Source: a virus
Lineage: Duplodnaviria > Heunggongvirae > Uroviricota > Caudoviricetes
IMG/VR virus record: IMGVR_UViG_2713897055_000004
Direction: 5' to 3' (one strand)
DNA length: 16,767 nt
The notes under the pieces are model-generated. The model was not told where the DNA came from, ran no database searches, and saw nothing but the letters and a program-made list of their open reading frames with translations. Positions 78 through 15,772 of this stretch are shown here, in pieces (the stretch's first letter is position 1; each line of letters opens with the position of its first letter). Position numbers and translations under genes: made by a program.

Positions 78-2653
78 CGCCCGCTCCCTGATAACATACC
101 GCCATCACGCAACTGCAGCCGGAGCTCATCCTGCGCCCCCTTGCGGGCCATGTCATACACCGCCTTCATCAGCTGCGGCCCCGCCTGTCCGTTGATACCG
201 TCGTTCTGAATCACCACGTGATTGTTCTGATTAAAATTAATACCTTCCGCCCGCCGCATCTGCGCCGGACTTCCGGCACCACCCACATACCCCCCTTCCG
301 CATAGCCGCGCATCAGACGGTAAAGATTCCCCACGCCTATCCGGCTGGTTGCCTCCTTCGTGAAGACAAACTCCCCGCGGTGAACTATCCCCGCAGGCTC
401 ATATTTGCCGCCCGTGCCCGTAAATCCGCCGGTCGCAAAATGGAAGTTCGCCGCCGCAGCCTCAATGGCCGTCCCCGTGGAGGCAGACGCCCCACCACCG
501 AAAGCACCACCAATGGCGCTGCCGATACGCCCGACAATGCCCACCATGGCCTGTTTAAGCAGGATTTCTGTCATCATGGACAGCACCGAACGGGTGAATC
601 CCCGCCAGTCTGCCTCTGCACCGGTCAGCATCGCCGTCATATTCTGTGCAATACCGTCAAAGGTCTGCGTGGCAGCACTTTTAACCTGCGAAAAACTGTC
701 CGTCGCACTTTCCGTCCACTCACCCCAGCCGGACTTCAGACCGGCCAGCCAGTCACCGCGCAGCATGTCTTCATCCGCCCATGTCTGTTTCAGTGCCCCG
801 GTGACCCGGGCCAGCGCCTGCGGATTATCGCCATACACGTCACGAAGACGCTGCGTTTCAGACTCCCGCTGCGCCTGACGGTCAGTGAGACCACGGGCTT
901 TTGCGCTGATGGCGGCCTGCTTCGCGCTCTGCTGCTCTTCAAACCGTGCCGCCTGCTGTGCCAGCTCATTCAGCCGTTTCTGGTATTCAACCTTGTCACC
1001 CAGCTCAGCCAGCTGGCGTTTGTACTCCAGCGTTTCTTTCTCATGAGCCAGCAGGGATTTTTCCTGCCCGGATAACTGTCGTTTCGTGGCAGCCTCTTTC
1101 AGGACCGCATACTGACTTTCTGCCTTCCATAAATCACGGCGCTGCCGGCTGATTTTCTCATTCGCACCGCTGTGTTTTTCCAGCGTCCTGAGTTCAGCTT
1201 CAAGGGCAAGCAGGGCTGCATGCGCCCGGTCTTCCTGACGCTCCCCGGCTGACACTCTGACACCTGACGACTTCGGTTTTTTCTGCGTTGATTCATAATC
1301 CTTTTTCGCCGACGCCATCAGCGTGTTGTAATCTGCCTGCAGGATTTTCCCGTCTTTCAGGGCCTGATTCAGCTCTTTCTGCCGGGCGGTATATTTATCC
1401 AGCGGCGACAACAGGCGTTCATACGCTTTCTGCGCCTCTCCGGTATACTTCAGCTGTGACGCCTCACGCTCAGCCCTGTCCCTTGCCGCCAGTTCACCGG
1501 CTTTTTCCATATCCGACTGCAGCGTTGCCGCCGCCAGCCCCAGACGGGCATTTTCCCGGTCATCCCATGCACCCTGAAGGTTGGCCCGGAAAGAGGAGGT
1601 TTTACCGCGGCGCTGGCTCCGGCTCTGGTACCACTGCCATTTTTTATCCGCCTCATCAAATGCCTTCTGCGCACTGGCGAGCATATCCGCTGAGGATTCA
1701 GGACGACCGATATCCAGAATGGCATCCCACATCGATTTGAACGCCTTTCCTGTTTTATCCGCCCAGGTTTCCAGCGTCCCCATGTTCTCTTTCAGGCGGC
1801 GGGTCTGCTCATCAAAGCCTTTCGTGGCAGCATCGTTCGCCGCCTGTAAGGCACCGGCCTCGTCTCCGGAACGCTGCAGCTGTGCAACATACGCAATCTG
1901 CTCCGCCGTCACGTTGCGGAACTGGCGTGCCATCGCAGTCAGCCCCGACGTCGGGTCGGTGGTCAGTTTTCCGAAAGCCTCTGCAACCTTGTCCACCTCC
2001 ACACCGGAGGCAGACGCAAAACGCACCACACTCTGGTTAATGGCATCAAACTGTTCACCACCACGCACACCGGCACTGACCAGGGCTGCCAGTGACTCTC
2101 CCGCCTGGTTAAACGTCAGCCCTGCCGCCTGCCCGGCTCTGGAGAGCGTCAGCATGCGCTCTGCCGTCAGTCCTGACTGATTACCGGAAAGAACCAGGGT
2201 TTTATTAAACGCTGAAAGCGTGGAATCCCCCTGGTACCAGGCGTACGCCAGCGCACCGGTCGCCACCGCCAGCGAGGTGACCCCGACCATCGGCAGGCTG
2301 ATCGCACCGGCAAGCCCCCGGAACATGGGGATCATCCCGCCGAATGAGTCCTTCACCTGACCGCCCTGTTGCAGCAGGATGAGCCAGGGATTCTGACCAC
2401 CGGCAAGCTGCGTGGCCACGTCGGTGAACTGCATGGGTAGCATACGCATGGCGGCTTTATACTGCCCGACGGACATCCCGGCTTTTTGTGCAGCCAGCGC
2501 CTGGCGGCTCAGCCCCTGCTCAACAGCAGTGGCGGTTTTTCTGGCGTCAGTCTCCAGTCCTGAAAAATGACGCCTTACGCGGGTCATCTGCTCATCGAAA
2601 CGGACCGCATCCAGACTCAGGTCAATAACAAGATCACCAACCGGCTGGGACAT
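74..2653 (-). CDS. H: Tail tape measure protein
   Basis: 859-aa ORF, collinear along its whole length with remembered lambda gpH (853 aa), including the Gly-rich C-terminal part. ATG at 2653 is preceded by GGAGGTG. Position between G/T and M. Confidence 0.95.
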   Translation of the reverse strand: MSQPVGDLVIDLSLDAVRFDEQMTRVRRHFSGLETDARKTATAVEQGLSRQALAAQKAGMSVGQYKAAMRMLPMQFTDVATQLAGGQNPWLILLQQGGQVKDSFGGMIPMFRGLAGAISLPMVGVTSLAVATGALAYAWYQGDSTLSAFNKTLVLSGNQSGLTAERMLTLSRAGQAAGLTFNQAGESLAALVSAGVRGGEQFDAINQSVVRFASASGVEVDKVAEAFGKLTTDPTSGLTAMARQFRNVTAEQIAYVAQLQRSGDEAGALQAANDAATKGFDEQTRRLKENMGTLETWADKTGKAFKSMWDAILDIGRPESSADMLASAQKAFDEADKKWQWYQSRSQRRGKTSSFRANLQGAWDDRENARLGLAAATLQSDMEKAGELAARDRAEREASQLKYTGEAQKAYERLLSPLDKYTARQKELNQALKDGKILQADYNTLMASAKKDYESTQKKPKSSGVRVSAGERQEDRAHAALLALEAELRTLEKHSGANEKISRQRRDLWKAESQYAVLKEAATKRQLSGQEKSLLAHEKETLEYKRQLAELGDKVEYQKRLNELAQQAARFEEQQSAKQAAISAKARGLTDRQAQRESETQRLRDVYGDNPQALARVTGALKQTWADEDMLRGDWLAGLKSGWGEWTESATDSFSQVKSAATQTFDGIAQNMTAMLTGAEADWRGFTRSVLSMMTEILLKQAMVGIVGRIGSAIGGAFGGGASASTGTAIEAAAANFHFATGGFTGTGGKYEPAGIVHRGEFVFTKEATSRIGVGNLYRLMRGYAEGGYVGGAGSPAQMRRAEGINFNQNNHVVIQNDGINGQAGPQLMKAVYDMARKGAQDELRLQLRDGGMLSGSGR

Positions 2654-3098
2654 ATCTCACACCTCCGGAAATCCCCGCTGAAGCCATCATTAATGCAACA
2701 TCATCCTCGCTGACATCCACCACATCCGCAGAAGGTGAAATATCGCCCCCTCCCTCCCCACCGAACCGGACGCCTCCGGCAAGTCCTGCCGCTTTCTGCA
2801 TCAGCATGTCTTCCTCATCCGGCCTCTCCGTCTGCGCTTCCTCACGCCGGGGGACAAGCAGACTGAAATCCGAGGGATGCATATCCGGATCGCAAAAAAA
2901 CAGGCTGAGTACGGCGTACGTCAGCCCGGAAAAATGCATATCCAGCTGGGTATCGTGAAAATAATGCGTGCGGTAAAAACGTCGCCAGTCGGCATATTCG
3001 GTGGATGTCATCCCGGCAAGCATGGCGCGCCAGTCGGGTCTCCCCATCTCACGCGCCAGTCTGAGGGCAAAGTTCAGCTCGCCGTCGAAGACTTTCCC
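2634..3098 (-). CDS. T: Tail assembly chaperone T-frame segment, expressed only as a G-T fusion by programmed -1 frameshift (fusion spans 2634..3505)
   Basis: The -1 frame from the slippery site reads VFDGELNFALRLAREMGRPDWRAMLAGMTSTEYADW..., matching remembered lambda gpT. There is no independent good start. Frame arithmetic checked: the codon at 3092 is in the frame of the 2634..3047 ORF. Confidence 0.8.
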   Translation of the reverse strand, partial: GKVFDGELNFALRLAREMGRPDWRAMLAGMTSTEYADWRRFYRTHYFHDTQLDMHFSGLTYAVLSLFFCDPDMHPSDFSLLVPRREEAQTERPDEEDMLMQKAAGLAGGVRFGGEGGGDISPSADVVDVSEDDVALMMASAGISGGVRYVPAGW

Positions 3099-3505
3099 GC
3101 AGAAAAATCATCATCAGTCAGCGTGTTATTTTTCGCCACTTCAGTAATATCAGTATCCGGACGAACAGCTTCGATCATCCCGGACAGGCACAACACCACG
3201 TCTTCCGCCCGGGCAATGGCATCGGCAGGCCAGGTGGTGAGCACTTCCTGCTCTATCTTCATCACGGCCTCATTCATTGACGGTGACTGCGTTTTCTGTG
3301 GATGGTTATGCCACAGGGACATCGCCACCAGAAACGCCCCGGTTCTGACAAGGTCTTCCACGCTCACCTGCAGGTTGCCGCTGGCTTCTGCCTCTTCTGC
3401 CCGCCGTTTCAGGAGGGCAAGATGCTCAATACGCTGCAGCGCAGACAGCTCAGAAAGCGTGACAGACACACCGTTATATTCAAATTGTTCTGTTTTCAGA
3501 AACAT
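3074..3505 (-). CDS. G: Tail assembly chaperone G
   Basis: 143 aa. MFLKTEQFEYNGVSVTLSELSALQRIEHLALLKRR... matches remembered lambda gpG. Lies immediately downstream of V. Confidence 0.9.
   Translation of the reverse strand: MFLKTEQFEYNGVSVTLSELSALQRIEHLALLKRRAEEAEASGNLQVSVEDLVRTGAFLVAMSLWHNHPQKTQSPSMNEAVMKIEQEVLTTWPADAIARAEDVVLCLSGMIEAVRPDTDITEVAKNNTLTDDDFSAGKSSTAS
3092..3098 (-). promoter_or_regulatory. Slippery heptamer G_GGA_AAG for the G-T -1 ribosomal frameshift
   Basis: Minus-strand sequence GCG GGA AAG TCT in the G zero frame (codon phase verified from the G start at 3505), 6 codons before the G stop. Same heptamer and position as the lambda G-T frameshift site. Confidence 0.8.
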
Positions 3506-4673: not shown

Positions 4674-5245
4674 CGTTTTATCGCAATCCTCAGTTGTTGT
4701 TTCAGCGCATATGCCAGTTCTTTGGGCAGGCGTTCTCGACGGATACGGTCAACGTTTTCATCAAACGCCTGTTTCAGTGGGGCCGCCATCGGGATTTTCA
4801 CCACCTGAATGGGAAGGCGATTACGCTTTTTCCTGCCCTTGTCGTCATAGCCCTTCTCATATCTGGCTTCGGGAAGACGTTGCATAACATGCCAGCGCCC
4901 ATTATTTAATCGCTGGATAAATGCCCGCTGATAACGATGCTGACCGGCTTTGAGTATGCTGTCCGGACGACGCCCCAGCATTCTGATCCCCAGCTTAATC
5001 ACAGGGAGATCACCGCGGTTAACGATAATTTTTGCATTCGGATTTCTGACCGTGGCCCGTTTCAGTCTGGACCGTTCCTTAACCAGTTTCCGGCGTACCT
5101 TTGTCTCACGGGCAACCTGTGATGAAGACTGATTAATCGCCGTTGTGGCCACGCGGTTAATCGTCATTGCTGAAGCCGCCGGAATGGCGTTTTTACGAAC
5201 CCGGCTCAGATTGTCAATCGCCTGATCAAGCCCTTTTATCGCCAT
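4670..5245 (-). CDS. Z: Tail completion protein Z
   Basis: 191 aa. MAIKGL(D/E)QA and the C-terminal IERIRRERLPKEL motif match remembered lambda gpZ (192 aa). Confidence 0.9.
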   Translation of the reverse strand: MAIKGLDQAIDNLSRVRKNAIPAASAMTINRVATTAINQSSSQVARETKVRRKLVKERSRLKRATVRNPNAKIIVNRGDLPVIKLGIRMLGRRPDSILKAGQHRYQRAFIQRLNNGRWHVMQRLPEARYEKGYDDKGRKKRNRLPIQVVKIPMAAPLKQAFDENVDRIRRERLPKELAYALKQQLRIAIKR

Positions 5246-6041: not shown

Positions 6042-7067
6042 TTATTTCACCTGTACCACCACAAACTCATCCGGATCCGGCAGCACCATCAGCGGTGCAG
6101 ACTGCGTCATGGTGAATTCACGGGCCGGATCGCCCACGGTCAGCCAGTGTTTCGGGTAACGGGAAGAAGCCACCACACCTTCGGACAACGCCTGTGCATC
6201 CTGAATGGCACCGTAACAACGGATCCCCTCTGCTGACGTATTTCCCAGGACCAGCGTGCCCTCTGGCAGATAACGTTTTTCGGTACCGTCCTCTGCCACA
6301 TAAGACGTTTTCGCCACCACAATAGCCAGATCGCCGTAATACCCTTTGAAAGACACCACCGCTCCCAGGTCTTTCACTGCCGTTTCGAGTTGTGAATTTG
6401 AGCCGCGACGGGTATCCAGTTTTTCGCGGAACAGCTTAAAGCCATTCAGCAGACGCCAGACCGTACCGTCCATAATGGCGATATTCACAAGACCGCTGGC
6501 CTGATCGCAGTAGAGGTCAATATCATGCGTCGGATCAAACGTATCACGGTCCTGCTCAGACCATTTTTTACCATCAGCCTGCTCAATGTTATTTCCTTCA
6601 GAGCGCCCGAAATCAACCTCGACAGTATCAAACTGCTCCCCTTCCATGGTGTATTTGCCATACAGCACGGCATTCACCGCCTGCATTTCTTCCACCTGGA
6701 CAATGGCATGCTCTTCCTGTTTGAGGTTATCGGTGATGATACGCAGACGACGGTAGGCCGGGTCGTTCAGCTGCGCCGGATCTTCACCGGGAAGGCGCTC
6801 CACCGCCTGCTGGTAATTAAATTCGTGTTTCGGCTTGACGTAGCCCGGACGTAACACGCGGGTTTCACCACCACGATGACGCAGCACTTTTCCTTCAACA
6901 ACCGGGGAGACATAGGCTGCCACCGGCGTTCCGGTAATTTTGTCCAGCATCACCTCTTCGGTGTGGAAATTCACCGTACGGCGGAAAAACAGTTCCAGAA
7001 ACAGCGCACGAAATTTCACTTTTTGTTCGGTATAACCGAGTAACTGGCGGGTCGTAAACAATCCCAT
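6042..7067 (-). CDS. E: Major capsid protein E
   Basis: 341 aa, same length as lambda gpE. Long collinear matches (KLDTRRGSNS(Q/E)LETAVKDLG, TGDPAREFTM.QSAPLM.L.DPDEFV.VQ). Confidence 0.95.
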   Translation of the reverse strand: MGLFTTRQLLGYTEQKVKFRALFLELFFRRTVNFHTEEVMLDKITGTPVAAYVSPVVEGKVLRHRGGETRVLRPGYVKPKHEFNYQQAVERLPGEDPAQLNDPAYRRLRIITDNLKQEEHAIVQVEEMQAVNAVLYGKYTMEGEQFDTVEVDFGRSEGNNIEQADGKKWSEQDRDTFDPTHDIDLYCDQASGLVNIAIMDGTVWRLLNGFKLFREKLDTRRGSNSQLETAVKDLGAVVSFKGYYGDLAIVVAKTSYVAEDGTEKRYLPEGTLVLGNTSAEGIRCYGAIQDAQALSEGVVASSRYPKHWLTVGDPAREFTMTQSAPLMVLPDPDEFVVVQVK

Positions 7068-7124: not shown

Positions 7125-7472
7125 TTACGGCAGCGCCGCGTGACTCAGGGCTGTGCCGACAAAGGCGTTGGCCTTTTTGTGTTCATCCACACGTTCAGGC
7201 CAGCGGATTGCCTCCGTCGCAAAGGTCCCCGACTTGTAATAGGTCAGCACCGTCTCTGTGCCTTCAAGCGGCAGTACCAGTATGCCAGCCGCACTACCGG
7301 CTTTCTGTCCGTCCCAGACCACCAGTTTCCCGGTGGACTCATCCAGCATCAGGGGTGTCAGTGCCGGTGTTGCCTGAGAAATCCCGCTGCTGCCTGTGGC
7401 GGTATGAGCCGGATCATTACCGGCAAAAATACGTACTTCCGCACGTTGTTCAGTGATGGTTTTCGTCACCAT
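7125..7472 (-). CDS. D: Head decoration protein D
   Basis: 115 aa. DPAHTAT, TPLMLD, KLV.WDG, GIL, YKSGTF match remembered lambda gpD (110 aa). Confidence 0.9.
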   Translation of the reverse strand: MVTKTITEQRAEVRIFAGNDPAHTATGSSGISQATPALTPLMLDESTGKLVVWDGQKAGSAAGILVLPLEGTETVLTYYKSGTFATEAIRWPERVDEHKKANAFVGTALSHAALP

Positions 7473-7507
7473 TTTGTTAAAACCTCATATTGATGTCAGC
7501 ACTGACT

Positions 7508-8110
7508 TCATGGCATGGCCATGAGCATTTTCACGTCCGCATCACCGTCTGCTGACGTCTGTGGCACGCCACCCCGCACCGCTGCCGGTGAATGATTCGC
7601 CATGAAATGTTCAAACAAGGCGGTTGTGGATGCAGAGACCGGTTCTGCCTTACCTGATCCCGCAGCCAGCACAGCCCGGGCGTTCTCCACGGTCATTCCC
7701 GGGCAGGCCGCCAGTTTTTCAGCCTGCGCTTCTGCCCCTTTTGCCTCATCCAGGGCCATGATCTGATCACGAAGTGAGGGCCCGGCATTCGCCTGCGGTG
7801 AGGCAGCCAGGATCGGGCGGGCTTTTTCCACCGTCATCTCCGGCATCGCCGCCAGCGTTGCCGCCAGTTGTTCACGACCTTTCGCTTCTTCACACGCCAT
7901 AATGCGATCGGCTTCACTCTGCGCGGATGCCACCGGCTGCTGTGGTGCCGCCGCGGCCAGAATCGCCCGGGCCTGTTCAATGCTCATGCCCTGTTGTCCT
8001 GCCAGCATCGTGGCAAGCTGTTCACGTCCTTTCGCTTCCTGACACGTCAGGATCCCCATCACTCGCTGGTTCTCCTGCGCGGCAGCTTCCGTTGCAGTTA
8101 ATTGCGGCAT
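7508..8110 (-). CDS. Nu3: Nu3-like scaffolding protein, in-frame internal start within C
   Basis: Internal ATG at 8110 preceded by a perfect AGGAGG 4 nt upstream. It lies at the position equivalent to the lambda Nu3 start (MTKETQ in lambda, MPQLTA here). Same frame and stop as C. Confidence 0.6.
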   Translation of the reverse strand: MPQLTATEAAAQENQRVMGILTCQEAKGREQLATMLAGQQGMSIEQARAILAAAAPQQPVASAQSEADRIMACEEAKGREQLAATLAAMPEMTVEKARPILAASPQANAGPSLRDQIMALDEAKGAEAQAEKLAACPGMTVENARAVLAAGSGKAEPVSASTTALFEHFMANHSPAAVRGGVPQTSADGDADVKMLMAMP

Positions 8111-9013
8111 AGTGCCTCCTGTATCATGAGTGTTCAGCGCCGCAGCCATCACGCTGATGGCATCCGACGCATTGATTAATTCATCCGCCAGTCCGGCCTT
8201 AATAGCGGACTGACCTTCAAAAACGGCAGCCTCTGTCCCCGTGACAGCTTCCACAGACAGCCCCGTATACATCGCCACTTTTTCGGCAAACATCCGGTGC
8301 GCCGCATCAACCCGCTGCTGCATGTCCTGACGCACCTCTGCCGGTAAGGCTTCAAACTGATTGCCATCCACCTTGTGCGCCCCGGCATAAATCAGCGTGA
8401 TATCCACCCCGGCCTGCGCCAGATGACCGGCATAGCTGACATGGCTCATCATCACGCCAATGGAGCCGATACGGGATGTCTGGGTAACCAGCCGTCGGGA
8501 GCAGGCCGACGCCAGCAGCATGGCTGCAGAACAGGCCGTGTCATTGCACAGTGCCCAGACCGGCTTCTGCTGCCGGAGGCGGTAAATCATGTCAGCGCAG
8601 TCAAACGCGCCTGCGGCCTGCCCGCCCGGACTGTCAATGTCCAGCAGTACGCCCCGCACCTGGCTATCCGCCATTGCCTGCTGAAGACAGGCGACAATGC
8701 CGTCATAGCCTGTCATTCCGGAAAATGGCCGCATGCCACCCAGCCGGTGCACCAGCGTGCCGGTCACCGGCAGTACAGCAATACCGTTCACCACCCGGTA
8801 AACACGGGCCGGTCGTTTACCTCCGGCCATGTACTCGTCCGTTTCAGCCAGCATTCCGGGAGCATCAAGCTGTACCTGCTGTTGTGGTACCGAAAGACTT
8901 GCTGCCCCCATCTCGCGCCCGAGCGCGCAAAAGAAAACCCGCGCATAGGCGGGCTCCAGAAGCAGTGGTTCATTGAATGCTGCGGCAATAATGTGTGAAA
9001 GATTACGTCTCAC
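7508..9013 (-). CDS. C: Prohead protease/scaffold protein C (S49/ClpP-like), GTG start
   Basis: 501 aa. The N-terminal two thirds match remembered lambda gpC (AFNEPLLLEPAYARVFFCAL, GMTGY.GI, TGSIGVMM.H, ITLIY.G.HKVDGN). The C-terminus carries an extra triplicated motif. The start codon is GTG at 9013 (verified), overlapping the end of B. Confidence 0.9.
   Translation of the reverse strand: MRRNLSHIIAAAFNEPLLLEPAYARVFFCALGREMGAASLSVPQQQVQLDAPGMLAETDEYMAGGKRPARVYRVVNGIAVLPVTGTLVHRLGGMRPFSGMTGYDGIVACLQQAMADSQVRGVLLDIDSPGGQAAGAFDCADMIYRLRQQKPVWALCNDTACSAAMLLASACSRRLVTQTSRIGSIGVMMSHVSYAGHLAQAGVDITLIYAGAHKVDGNQFEALPAEVRQDMQQRVDAAHRMFAEKVAMYTGLSVEAVTGTEAAVFEGQSAIKAGLADELINASDAISVMAAALNTHDTGGTMPQLTATEAAAQENQRVMGILTCQEAKGREQLATMLAGQQGMSIEQARAILAAAAPQQPVASAQSEADRIMACEEAKGREQLAATLAAMPEMTVEKARPILAASPQANAGPSLRDQIMALDEAKGAEAQAEKLAACPGMTVENARAVLAAGSGKAEPVSASTTALFEHFMANHSPAAVRGGVPQTSADGDADVKMLMAMP
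7622..8062 (-). repeat. Three diverged tandem in-frame repeats (about 141-150 bp each) inside the C/Nu3 coding region
   Basis: Protein repeats around EAKGREQLA..LA...(M/L)(S/T)(I/V)E.ARAILAA at residues about 318-364, 371-417 and 418-464. DNA copies are visible near 7730, 7871 and 8021 (for example ttcacgacctttcgcttc versus ttcacgtcctttcgcttc, 150 bp apart). Lambda gpC as I recall it has one copy. Confidence 0.6.
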
Positions 9014-10595
9014 GTGGTGTTGTCTCCTCTTCCGGCCTGCGACTCTCCGCTATCTGCTGCTGATACGCCTGCGCTATCCACACCGGACGTGAGAGTCCGG
9101 CTTTTTCCCGCTCTGCAGATTCCCTGACCTGCTGGCGGAAAATGTCCTGATAATCCTCGCCCATCAGCGCCAGCTCTTTCTCATACGTGCTCAGTCCGGC
9201 CTCAATGCGCATCACTGATTCCTGAACCTCCTTGAGCCCGTCAATGGCCATTCTTCCGGCTCCAATCCACTCAGCCCGTGACCAGGCTGATCGCGCCTGA
9301 TAAAAATCAAAACGTGCCCGTGGCGGACGAATAATCCCCCGAAGAAGTGCCTCTTCCAGCCAGCAGGAAAACATCTGCGTGGCCAGCCGGGACGCAATAA
9401 ATTTTCGCCGCCCCATAAAATAGCGCCACGACTCATTGGCGGATGCGCGGGCACTTGAATAACTGACCTTCGAGTAATCACGGGACAACTGTTCGTAGGA
9501 AACGCCAAGACCGGCGGCGATATACCGCAGCAGCGCCTGTTCAAGCGCCGAAAATCCATTGTCTGAATCCTGCGCGGTCTGTAGTTTCAGATCATCACCG
9601 GGGAAAAGGTGCGGAATTTTGACACCGCCCAGCGTCACGCTATTCGTGTCATACCAGGTGGAGAACTTATCCAGAATATTAATAAGCGGATTATCCTTCT
9701 GCCCCTGCGGCGCACCGGCGATATATTCAAAGGCCTTTTCGGTATCAAGGTCACTTTCAATCGTCGCTGCATACATCGCCTTCACTATGGCCGACTGAAG
9801 CTGTGTTGCCTGCAGGGAATCGAGCATCTTCAGCCGTTCCATTACGCTGTAAAACTGATTGGCCCCACGGGTCTGCCCGTCCTCCACCGGCTCGAAAATA
9901 TGCAGCATGGCCGGACGCCCGGTGGGAAGTTCACGCGGGATCCGTTCCCATCGTCCACTCCCGGAGAACGGAAAATCATCCTCACAGATATGGTACGCAA
10001 CGGCACGACCATATCGATCGACCTCCACACCGGCCCGCAGAAAACGGTTCCCCATACCGTGTCCTGGCGTGTCCACCCGTTTCGGACTCACGGCTTTAAA
10101 ACGCGTACGAAACAGTTGCGTGCTCTCCGTATCCCAGACCGGCTGCACAAAGATTTCGCCGTTAAACGCATGAACGCCCACACCTTCACGGATAAATTCC
10201 GTAAACGTGCGTTTCCCTTCCACGTCGATCTCGCCAAACATCCCTTCGGCGTATTCCGACCAGGCCGCCTCCACCTCATCGACAAAACTTTTTGCCGCAG
10301 TCTCCCGCATCCCCAGCCAGCGCCAGTTCGGACGGTAGCTGATCAGAAACATATGCCCGACAATATGATCCTTATGCAGGGCCACCGCATTAGCCGCTAT
10401 CCCGTTATTGCGCACCAGATCATCTGCCCGGGCATTCCCCAGACGCAACGCAGGCAGCAGGGCTGCATCGGCACTCTGCGCCGGTGGCAACCACTCCGCC
10501 ATTTGCCCGCCAAATCCTGCGCCGCCCCCGTTGTAGCTGAGACTCTCACGAAGCGGAACGCCGTTCACATCAATCAGGACAGGCGTTCGTTTCAT
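9003..10595 (-). CDS. B: Portal protein B
   Basis: 530 aa versus lambda gpB at 533 aa. Extensive collinear identity (GNARADDLVRNNG, FEPVEDGQTRGAN.FYSVME, LQSAIVKAMYAATIES.LDT, LLRYIAAGLGVSYEQLSR, GRMAIDGLKEVQE). Confidence 0.95.
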   Translation of the reverse strand: MKRTPVLIDVNGVPLRESLSYNGGGAGFGGQMAEWLPPAQSADAALLPALRLGNARADDLVRNNGIAANAVALHKDHIVGHMFLISYRPNWRWLGMRETAAKSFVDEVEAAWSEYAEGMFGEIDVEGKRTFTEFIREGVGVHAFNGEIFVQPVWDTESTQLFRTRFKAVSPKRVDTPGHGMGNRFLRAGVEVDRYGRAVAYHICEDDFPFSGSGRWERIPRELPTGRPAMLHIFEPVEDGQTRGANQFYSVMERLKMLDSLQATQLQSAIVKAMYAATIESDLDTEKAFEYIAGAPQGQKDNPLINILDKFSTWYDTNSVTLGGVKIPHLFPGDDLKLQTAQDSDNGFSALEQALLRYIAAGLGVSYEQLSRDYSKVSYSSARASANESWRYFMGRRKFIASRLATQMFSCWLEEALLRGIIRPPRARFDFYQARSAWSRAEWIGAGRMAIDGLKEVQESVMRIEAGLSTYEKELALMGEDYQDIFRQQVRESAEREKAGLSRPVWIAQAYQQQIAESRRPEEETTPRET

Positions 10596-13919: not shown

Positions 13920-14405
13920 TTATTTCAGTTCGTTACCAGGCATTTCTTTTAGCTCTTTCAAATGACAACGATTGAGGCTAAACCACTCCCCGTGCGACCT
14001 ATAGTTGTAATATTTTTGGTGCAATTTGGTTTCAAGCTCTCTATCGGCCGGAATCTTTGCAATTAGATTTAGCTTCCCACCACTCATGCGAGATATCTCT
14101 GAAATTCGTTTATTAACCCTGCGACTAAACCCTATTTTTGTTAGCCCACTATCTTCAGCATGCAGAACGTACACATATGATTTTTGCGAAGCACTGGGTG
14201 CAACTTTGTTGTAATTAATCATGTCAAACATGAAGCCTTGCTTTAGCAAAGTTTCAAAAAAGATAGAATTAACACACCCATTCCTTCTCAGCTCTGCACT
14301 TAGCTTGTCAATTTCCTCTATGATGTCGCCAGACCCCTTTCCACTTATAAGAAAATCTTGGTACATGCGACCAATTCTTGAGGTAATTTCAACAAAGTTA
14401 TTCAT
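13920..14405 (-). CDS. T5orf172 / GIY-YIG-like domain protein (moron; function unknown)
   Basis: 161-aa ORF with ATG at 14405 and AAGG upstream. The C-terminal half has the pattern YVYVL...GLTKIGFS(R)..N.R...I.......L.......ELE..LHQ.Y...R..GEWF, which I recognise as T5orf172/MUG113 (GIY-YIG-like). The ORF is clearly AT-rich by eye compared with the flanking phage genes. Confidence 0.6.
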   Translation of the reverse strand: MNNFVEITSRIGRMYQDFLISGKGSGDIIEEIDKLSAELRRNGCVNSIFFETLLKQGFMFDMINYNKVAPSASQKSYVYVLHAEDSGLTKIGFSRRVNKRISEISRMSGGKLNLIAKIPADRELETKLHQKYYNYRSHGEWFSLNRCHLKELKEMPGNELK

Positions 14406-14610: not shown

Positions 14611-15054
14611 TTATTTCAGGCATTGCGTCCTGATGTACTCCTGCAGGTAGTTAACCTGCGCGGTTATCCTGTCGATTCCACTTCGGAGACGGTAATAATT
14701 GAGTTCAGCATCTGCTGTAAGTCCTGGGCTTTCTCCATCGCCCATGCTGCTGGCTCCGGTCGTTGACTTTGCACAGGTGGCGGCGACTTGCAGGCGCTTA
14801 CGACCAGCAGAAACATCAGCACGGAGACTTTCGATAGTCGCATTAGCATCAGCAAGCTCCTTTGTGTATCTGGCGTCAAGTTCTGCTACATCACGTTGCC
14901 GCTTCTGCATATCATCGATGATGGATGTGGCTTTATCGCGCTGCTCTTTGTAGGCGATGGCGTTATCACGGTAATGATTCAGCCCCAGACTAAGCACACC
15001 ACAGACCACCAGCAGAATAACGGTAAACGCGGAAATAATTCGGTTTATGCTCAC
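14611..15054 (-). CDS. Rz: Inner-membrane spanin subunit Rz (GTG start at 15054)
   Basis: From the GTG: [41 protein letters not shown]...[22 protein letters not shown], collinear with remembered lambda Rz ([39 protein letters not shown]). The ORF-track start at 15147 is an upstream TTG with an implausible N-terminus. Confidence 0.85.
14664..14849 (-). CDS. Rz1: Outer-membrane lipoprotein spanin subunit Rz1, embedded in the +1 frame of Rz
   Basis: ATG at 14849 preceded by AAGGAG with a 7-nt spacer. 61-aa product [36 protein letters not shown]... has a lipobox-like VSAC and a Pro-rich mature part like lambda Rz1 (60 aa). Entirely nested within Rz. Confidence 0.7.
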
Positions 15055-15200
15055 CCCACCAGCCCTGCCGAACTCAACGCCATCCAGGCTATGGAAAGAA
15101 AAAGAGCAACCATCATTAGCGAAAATGAAACGCCGACAATCACACAAATGGTCTTTGTCAGCGTTATGATTTTATCCGATATCATTAGCCACCTCTCCAT
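15051..15200 (-). CDS. Small hydrophobic ORF (49 aa; 44 aa from an internal ATG at 15185), possibly a duplicated Rz N-terminal signal-anchor remnant
   Basis: Not in the ORF track because it is under 60 aa. Its ATG overlaps the Ant-like stop (TGATG) and its TGA overlaps the Rz GTG start (GTGA). Product [49 protein letters not shown] has one predicted transmembrane helix. The segment [22 protein letters not shown] resembles the Rz N-terminus [22 protein letters not shown]. Confidence 0.3.
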
Positions 15201-15772
15201 CAATCCGCCTTTGTTATTTTCCCTTTGCCTGTATCAGCCAGGACAAAATCAATCAGCAGATTCGCTTCGTTTATCAATGTGCGGATTTTTGATACATGCG
15301 CAGCTTTAACCTGTTTCCACTCATTCAGCCCGGTAGCAAACACACTGACAATGTTTTTATCCCGTTGCATGTCAGCGCAAGCCTGATTGAGTTCTTCCAT
15401 CACGCTCATTTGACGAGGATTAACGACAAAACCCTTCGTCCAGTATTCATAGAGAACATCGTCGCACTCTTCCTGATACTGAATGACTCTGTCGCGGATT
15501 TCAGGTTTAACTTTATTTGGGTTGATGGTTTGCAGCCAACCTGCAAGTTTACGTAAAGCAAGACAGATAACCAGACGACGCTGAGTATCACCGGGGAGCT
15601 GAATCATCATTTCGATGATGCAGGTCTTAAATCTCTCTATCAATTTGCGGTGTTGAGACTGCCAGGTCATACCCATTCCCTCAACGACAGGTTTCATGGG
15701 AACGTATGGTTCGCCGTTATGGTTAACCACATAAAGAGAATCGCCGTGAAACGGCACGGTCATCATATTCAT
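15200..15772 (-). CDS. Ant-like protein (P22 antirepressor N-terminal-domain-like), inserted between endolysin and Rz
   Basis: 190-aa ORF with ATG at 15772 preceded by AAGGAA. The N-terminal pattern VPFHGDSLYVV.HNGEPYVPMKPVVEGMGMTWQSQ..KL...F......I......GD.QRR.V.CL.L.KL.GWL.TINP.KVKPEIR is what I recall for the P22_AR_N family. This is a domain-level recollection, not a computed hit. Confidence 0.55.
   Translation of the reverse strand: MNMMTVPFHGDSLYVVNHNGEPYVPMKPVVEGMGMTWQSQHRKLIERFKTCIIEMMIQLPGDTQRRLVICLALRKLAGWLQTINPNKVKPEIRDRVIQYQEECDDVLYEYWTKGFVVNPRQMSVMEELNQACADMQRDKNIVSVFATGLNEWKQVKAAHVSKIRTLINEANLLIDFVLADTGKGKITKAD

Follow-up and report, generated by a model that had tools for sequence, protein, structure and literature searches.

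The stretch of DNA analyzed here (the window; 16,767 nucleotides (nt) of the IMG/VR virus record IMGVR_UViG_2713897055_000004, Caudoviricetes) carries on its minus strand a head maturation protease/scaffold fusion gene (7508..9013), homologous to phage 21 gene 5 and to lambda C, whose scaffold portion contains a threefold repeat and a putative internal translation start. According to the list of open reading frames (ORFs) and their translations, the minus-strand ORF 9013..7508 has a GTG start and encodes 501 amino acids (aa) plus stop; the protein matches PHROG_53, "head maturation protease", with E = 6e-228. An S49 (SppA/ClpP-like) serine peptidase domain occupies aa 146-293 (8135..8578, minus strand; Pfam PF01343, E = 4.4e-36). 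The protease domain can be aligned to B. subtilis SppA 3rst over aa 77-289, and also to 4kwb, and a PDB sequence search with the whole protein returned SppA/ClpP only, for this domain. Ser162 and Lys214 are invariant in a family alignment of seven sequences and, by comparison with SppA, are the putative catalytic pair.

Downstream of the protease domain, a DNA repeat search identified one family of three 97-nt copies (7662-7758, 7803-7899 and 7953-8049), lying on the coding (minus) strand of the ORF, 66-70% identical to each other and spaced by 141 and 150 nt, which correspond to 47 and 50 codons. Tandem Repeats Finder, run with a minimum score of 30, reported no repeat, because the copies are too diverged. 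At the protein level, a hidden Markov model (HMM) of the unit delimits R1 or Tri1 (aa 314-357; 7943..8074; E = 2.5e-28), R2 or Tri2 (aa 367-407; 7793..7915; E = 1.5e-25) and R3 or Tri3 (aa 414-454; 7652..7774; E = 5.9e-24), all on the minus strand, and matches nothing else across the 501-aa protein. Their sequences are ENQRVMGILTCQEAKGREQLATMLAGQQGMSIEQARAILAAAAP for R1, EADRIMACEEAKGREQLAATLAAMPEMTVEKARPILAASPQ for R2 and LRDQIMALDEAKGAEAQAEKLAACPGMTVENARAVLAAGSG for R3. Local alignments of unit against unit score 85-105, while shuffled sequences give a mean of about 25 with a standard deviation of about 5 (z = 12-16). Sixteen columns are invariant among the units, including E-A-K-G-x-E, L-A, M and A-R..L-A-A, so that the unit can be described as a module of about 41-44 residues with the consensus E..RIM..-EAKGRE-LA..LA..PGM(S/T)VE.AR.ILAA. 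The three units are followed by a C-terminal tail (aa 455-501; 7511..7651, minus strand), common to protease and scaffold, with two predicted short helices, one in the FEHFM region and one at the terminal KMLMAMP. A preliminary description of the window, made from its letters, had proposed a tandem triplication at 7622-8062; the identity of the DNA copies and the z scores of the protein units both confirm it, and the proposed span was essentially right, with HMM envelopes extending from 8074 to 7652.

At the end of the protease domain, an internal Shine-Dalgarno sequence, AGGAGG (8115..8120, minus strand), is embedded in the Gly-Gly codons that close the domain. It is followed after a 4-nt spacer by an ATG (8110-8108), from which the frame remains open to the stop at 7510-7508. 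The predicted nested in-frame scaffold gene (7508..8110, minus strand; 200 aa plus stop), homologous to phage 21 gene 6 and analogous to lambda Nu3, contains all three units. The unit region is covered by the PHROG clusters 8399, 1999, 17040 and 8940 only, and PHROG_8399, "head scaffolding protein", matches the 200-aa product in three stretches; Pfam gave no match to aa 300-501 even at E<=1, and NCBIfam gave none to the 200-aa product. The window, phage 21 and Salmonella phage Gifsy-1 share a 15-nt block, AGGAGGCACTATGCC, without any change although its flanks differ, and the Shine-Dalgarno sequence, the spacer and the ATG are identical in the three phages, third codon positions included. GGAGG or AGGAGG together with an ATG was found at the protease/scaffold boundary in 80 out of 80 related IMG/VR loci, including lineages that are only 46-60% identical; the spacer length varies across the family, with the Shine-Dalgarno sequence (GGAGG/AGGAG) and the ATG kept. 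Gene callers have also called the short product alone (P0003, 200 aa; P0210; P0353). Counted from the conserved start, the scaffold would measure 131-137 aa with one unit, 144-150 aa with two, 197-206 aa with three and 236 aa with four.

One may ask whether only the full-length protease-scaffold is made, the AGGAGG-ATG being a by-product of coding for Gly-Gly-x-Met and the free scaffold arising by autoproteolysis. The ribosome-binding sites of phage 21 are indeed labelled "putative", and the Gly-Gly-x-Met residues are themselves conserved. We nevertheless judge this explanation very improbable, as the window, phage 21 and Gifsy-1 have the same nucleotides in the Shine-Dalgarno sequence, spacer and ATG, unlike the diverging codons around them, the signal is retained in every one of the 80 loci over such distant lineages, and the short product was gene-called independently in the three proteins named above. 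A nested scaffold gene with its own start thus remains the preferred reading, as the preliminary description had supposed when it suggested that the internal AGGAGG-ATG would make a Nu3-like product with all repeats; the conservation of the signal, together with the coding sequence (CDS) and ribosome-binding site annotated in phage 21, argues for it.

The gene is 96.1% identical at the nucleotide level to phage 21 gene 5 over all 1506 nt (M81255, OL657228), and the 200-aa product is 95% identical in amino acids to its phage 21 counterpart. Phage 21 genes 5 and 6 (head-tail preconnector gp5 and scaffold gp6) have the same 501- and 200-aa products, internal ribosome-binding site and ATG; the window, a prophage copy, differs from them by about 4% point divergence only. 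In the record of the phage 21 head operon, M81255.1, gene 6 is entered as a nested CDS of 603 nt whose ribosome-binding site is labelled putative, and three repeat_region features, named "Tri1 box", "Tri box" and "Tri3 box", carry the remark "function unknown; putative". These boxes (gene nt 971-1074, 1111-1221 and 1252-1365) map to window positions 8043-7940, 7903-7793 and 7762-7649 and coincide with R1-R3, which excludes that they lie elsewhere. Both CDSs and the internal ribosome-binding site are annotated in the complete phage 21 genome (OL657228.1) too. The triplication, the nested gene and its ribosome-binding site are therefore already known, as they stand in a phage 21 GenBank record of the early 1990s. 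The original paper on the phage 21 head genes is reportedly that of Smith and Feiss in 1993 (Gene 126:1).

The same arrangement is common in E. coli. The region 7408-8210 is 99.6% identical to the chromosome of E. coli O22:H8 and is matched in 1870 of 5426 complete E. coli genomes, about one third, at 2923 places; 58 of 60 sampled best matches are full-length and ungapped. In the phage collection, 19 records cover at least 80% of the gene (18 cover all 1506 nt), and none shows an insertion or deletion, which means that all 19 have kept three units. OL657228 also annotates two "CII binding site" features of the pattern TTGYN6TTGY inside gene 6, both present in the window (7858-7871 and 8092-8105, plus strand). 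The pattern occurs twice in the 16.8 kb against 3.2 expected, and 162 of 200 shuffles reach two occurrences; we rejected it as a feature of the repeat, its frequency being at chance level.

Lambda C and Nu3 (NC_001416, 4418-5737 and 5132-5737) have the same operon position, a nested in-frame scaffold sharing the C-terminus, and a homologous tail. Overall, lambda C (439 aa) shares 53% identity with the 501-aa protein, and 60% in the S49 part over the first 295 aa; this identity and the Pfam S49 match (E = 4e-36) bear out an earlier remark that the protease domain is lambda-like. Likewise, the expectation of one motif copy in lambda and three in the window was borne out by the unit HMM and by the alignment with lambda, since hmmsearch (--max, E<=100) detects a single unit in lambda C, at aa 357-400. 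R1 scores 124 against this unit, 150-166 against R1 of Gifsy-1 and of two related proteins (P0209 and P0210), and 81-104 against R2 and R3; by these alignments, the single lambda unit is orthologous to R1 and not to R2 or R3. The repeat had also been offered as the explanation for a protein of 501 rather than 439 aa. It is the main cause, with 97 aa contributed by two extra units and their spacers, but this account omitted the linker, which is 36 aa longer in lambda: the excess of 62 aa is the sum of these 97 aa, minus 36 in the linker, plus 8 in the C-terminal tail, minus 7 upstream. Between the internal Met and the first unit, lambda has 48 aa of low complexity, compared with 12 aa in the window. 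The major capsid proteins of lambda and the window, both of 341 aa, are 62% identical.

The two systems differ in the annotated scaffold start. In both lambda records, the annotated nu3 begins at 5132 (codon 239, within the protease domain; 201 aa), with a weak Shine-Dalgarno sequence, and the corresponding codon in the window is GTT, which is no start codon. Lambda itself has an AGGAGG-N4-ATG at C codon Met309 (NC_001416 5329-5344), homologous to the internal start of the window. A 131-aa product was gene-called on 165 contigs, and the PHROG_8399 profile has a length of 131. The annotated start of lambda Nu3 may be wrong, or a second product may exist. We also considered that scaffold length could be conserved at about 200 aa (200 aa for phage 21 gp6, 201 aa for annotated lambda Nu3), and discarded this as probably coincidental given a family-wide range of 131-236 aa. 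Nu3 is said to be established as an independent translation product nested in C, reportedly since Shaw and Murialdo in 1980.

The divergence of the units provides information on their age. Among the units of the window, the synonymous divergence (dS) is 1.7-1.9, that is, saturated, so the triplication is old. Gifsy-1, P0209 and P0210 have three units each, and every unit is closest to its positional counterpart in the window (for R2 and Gifsy-1 R2, positional orthologues, the score is 147); the triplication therefore predates the split of these lineages. The Gifsy-1 protein, STM2605 (prohead protease, lambda gpC homologue), has 498 aa, three units and an identical internal Shine-Dalgarno-ATG block; it differs in the scaffold part, which is 56.5% identical, and above all in the tail, at 33% amino acid identity. 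Between the window and Gifsy-1, the ratio of nonsynonymous to synonymous divergence (dN/dS) is 0.12 for R2, 0.31 for R3 and 0.17 for the protease domain, with dS of R1 saturated, and the tail, with a dN/dS of 0.54, evolves faster than the units. From these comparisons, all three copies appear to be retained as protein under purifying selection, dN/dS being estimable for R2 and R3. These data bear on the idea that the repeat acts at the nucleic-acid level, either as a recombination hot spot kept for variation or through antisense CII-dependent promoters. The presence of the two annotated TTGYN6TTGY sites and the existence of recombinant copy-number variants could speak for it. However, the two matches are below the chance expectation, recombination is a consequence of the repeat and no sign of function, and synonymous sites are saturated between units while the amino acid motif is kept, which indicates selection on the protein. 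We consider such a role of the DNA extremely unlikely and treat the units as protein modules in what follows.

Structure prediction of the 200-aa product by AlphaFold2 gave a mean predicted local distance difference test (pLDDT) of 68.7 and a predicted template modelling score of 0.29. The model builds every unit from short helices, closing with a helix-loop(GMS/T)-helix (pLDDT of 74-85), gives the spacers low confidence, and places the tail helices at residues 160-172 and 191-196; a model of a single unit is a helical hairpin. In these models, the units read as independent small helical modules on flexible linkers, resembling beads on a string. A PDB search with the unit profile found no solved relative, only a chance match to haemoglobin; Foldseek with the 200-aa model against the PDB returned nothing below E = 3, and fold searches with the unit model returned generic hairpins only. 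These searches gave no match in sequence, and none of significance in fold, to the C-terminal domain of the P22 scaffold or to the protease/scaffold pairs of herpesvirus and phage P2.

The distribution of the unit was evaluated by searching its profile against 1.84 billion cluster representatives (50% level) at E<=0.001, which gave 482 proteins. Unit counts cover the 144 representatives that were new among the best 150 listed of the 482: one unit in 131, two in eight and three in five. In these 144, the long representatives (at least 350 aa) are of the S49 type, and the unit lies at a median of 52 aa from the C-terminus, compared with 48 aa in the short ones. Close relatives at 80-97% identity form a length series. 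Forms of 451/452 aa, with an R1/R2 hybrid and two units, account for 25 of the 120 clusters listed, one being annotated from O157:H7. A 472-aa form (P0172) carries a 29-aa deletion spanning R1/R2, and a 482-aa form (P0104), found on at least 1000 contigs, carries a 19-aa deletion in R2 between LAA...LAA that removes the second R2 helix. In a single case, a 657-aa form (P0089) has a duplication of 156 aa that takes in the internal start and the last part of the protease domain. In its nucleotide sequence, the two-unit form lacks 150 nt in register, and the junction falls within a shared GCCCG(G/C)...ATYCTGGC stretch; this form lies within an intact head operon, and the major capsid protein is 94-96% identical to those of the window and phage 21. 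A second two-unit form (L032) has another breakpoint.

Four units were found in a separate S49 protease/scaffold lineage of IMG/VR (L041, L043-L046 and L048; 59-67% identical), in which units 2-4 are near-identical to each other and which has a two-unit relative. This pattern suggests that the units were amplified recently or evolve in concert, independently of the old triplication of the phage 21 type. We discounted 551-aa forms of the phage 21 lineage that appear to have four units (P0090 and P0091; L005:4001-5656 and L088:1001-2656). These two assemblies of one project carry N at gene positions 1323 and 1473, at which R2 and R3 differ; the N stand 150 nt apart, exactly one repeat period, so these forms are probably an assembly artefact. 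The four-unit lineage of IMG/VR is clean in this respect. The natural copy number ranges from one to four, and the junctions are typical of unequal or microhomology recombination. It had been suggested that the repeat is prone to recombination and might show length polymorphism, and the 451/452-, 472- and 482-aa variants, with junctions in or between units of otherwise near-identical genes, are precisely of this kind. For annotation, differences of 19, 29 and 50 aa in these genes should be read as products of repeat recombination and not as sequencing noise. No earlier description of the copy-number series was found as far as we checked, in sources that did not cover the relevant literature. 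In another group of ORFs (P0174-P0176, P0239, P0247, P0283 and P0242), the C gene is fused soon after the last unit to tail-fibre-like sequence, to tail protein L or U, or to tape-measure sequence, and one case in the chimeric set joins the N-terminus of Nu1 to the scaffold part. These chimeric ORFs probably stem either from deletions in defective prophages or from misassembly.

The length series also raises the question of whether the units are a spacer that sets scaffold length or flexibility, offering no specific binding surface, with the extra copies replacing the low-complexity linker of lambda. Single-unit relatives have an Ala/Thr/Ser/Gln-rich linker of 48-54 aa, compared with 12-14 aa in multi-unit ones, copy numbers of one to four occur alongside closely related capsid proteins, and the 482-aa form is widespread without half of R2. 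Against a spacer stand the purifying selection on R2 and R3, similar to that on the protease, the E-A-x-G-x-E ... L-A ... M ... A-R..L-A-A columns that are invariant among units, and the motif itself, which unlike the linker is recognisable in all 482 clusters; moreover, the product length from the conserved start is not constant, varying from 131 to 236 aa. A pure spacer is thus unlikely.

The position of the gene was also considered. By PHROG assignments, it is flanked by the genes for the portal (9003-10595), the decoration protein (7125-7472) and the major head protein (6042-7067), and its same-strand neighbours form a complete late operon of the lambda/phage 21 type, in the order endolysin, Rz, small and large terminase, W, portal, 501-aa gene, decoration protein, major capsid protein, FI, FII, Z, U, V, G, T and tape measure. 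An S49 domain with its Ser and Lys, a place in the head operon and an internal start signal are all found here, as expected, at the level of sequence, of a protein of the lambda C/phage 21 gp5 type. Elsewhere in the operon, a 190-aa ORF of the Ant anti-repressor type (15200-15772, minus strand; PHROG_524, E = 1e-105) is inserted within the lysis cassette, between endolysin (16047-16580) and the Rz-like spanin (14611-15147). Between the genes for the spanin and the small terminase, near the expected cos, stands a 161-aa ORF (13920-14405, minus strand; PHROG_4284, E = 1e-75) that weakly resembles an endonuclease family. The tail-assembly ORFs G and T (3074-3505 and 2634-3047, minus strand) share the single profile PHROG_32165, at its positions 1-142 and 154-290, which is consistent with a conserved programmed frameshift of the lambda G/GT type.

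Considering these results together, we think it highly probable that the locus is a lambda C/Nu3 head-assembly pair of the phage 21 type in an E. coli prophage, comprising an S49 protease with a scaffold tail and an internally started 200-aa scaffold, which share three old helical modules and a tail of about 47 aa, and for which contacts with capsid, portal and scaffold are proposed by analogy. One reading frame would give two proteins with a common C-terminus, the 501-aa protease-scaffold and an abundant 200-aa scaffold. The latter would co-assemble with the major capsid protein and the portal, and the shared C-terminal part would bring the protease into the assembling procapsid, where it would later digest the scaffold. 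The units may act as independent multivalent contacts with the major capsid protein, with the portal and/or between scaffold molecules, and three of them would make the scaffold multivalent; the contact surface is best sought in the invariant EAKGRE turn and in the GM(S/T)-helix. For lambda Nu3, interactions with E, with C and with itself are reported, from two-hybrid data and literature tables (PMC3224144). The docking, contact and digestion steps are all proposed by analogy with lambda Nu3, P2 gpO and herpesvirus UL26/UL26.5.

Several points weigh against this interpretation. Copy number differs among near-identical prophages, so either there is no strict need for three units or part of the variants are defective. 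That the internal start is used is deduced from the conservation of the signal and from a phage 21 annotation marked "putative". Two AlphaFold models disagree on the first part of the unit, one long helix in one and two helices in the other, and their confidence is moderate. The title of a paper by Medina et al. from 2011 calls lambda gpNu3 "intrinsically disordered", so the modules may fold only on binding.

A further possibility, which we put forward as tentative and rather doubtful, is that the unit is the true contact module of the scaffold, with unequal crossing-over yielding scaffolds of 1, 2, about 2.5, 3 or 4 modules that serve closely related T=7 capsid proteins, so that valency would be evolvable, and either tolerated or tuned. 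If this were true, the natural series would allow a test of how valency affects assembly fidelity. As a discovery the repeat has little weight, being long annotated in phage 21 and common in E. coli; the additions made here are the natural copy-number series and the family-wide conservation of the internal start. The series from one to four copies is in any case a ready set of variants for probing the role of scaffold repeats.

The proposed arrangement resembles other nested protease/scaffold pairs, such as herpesvirus UL26/UL26.5 and phage P2 gpO, in which the common C-terminal part docks on the capsid protein; the herpesvirus assemblin, however, has a protease fold other than S49. In P22, phi29 and other scaffolds, the contact is made by a small helix-loop-helix element (PMC11922011). 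Unlike the helix-turn-helix of P22-type scaffolds, the unit described here occurs in tandem copies, and not at the very C-terminal end.

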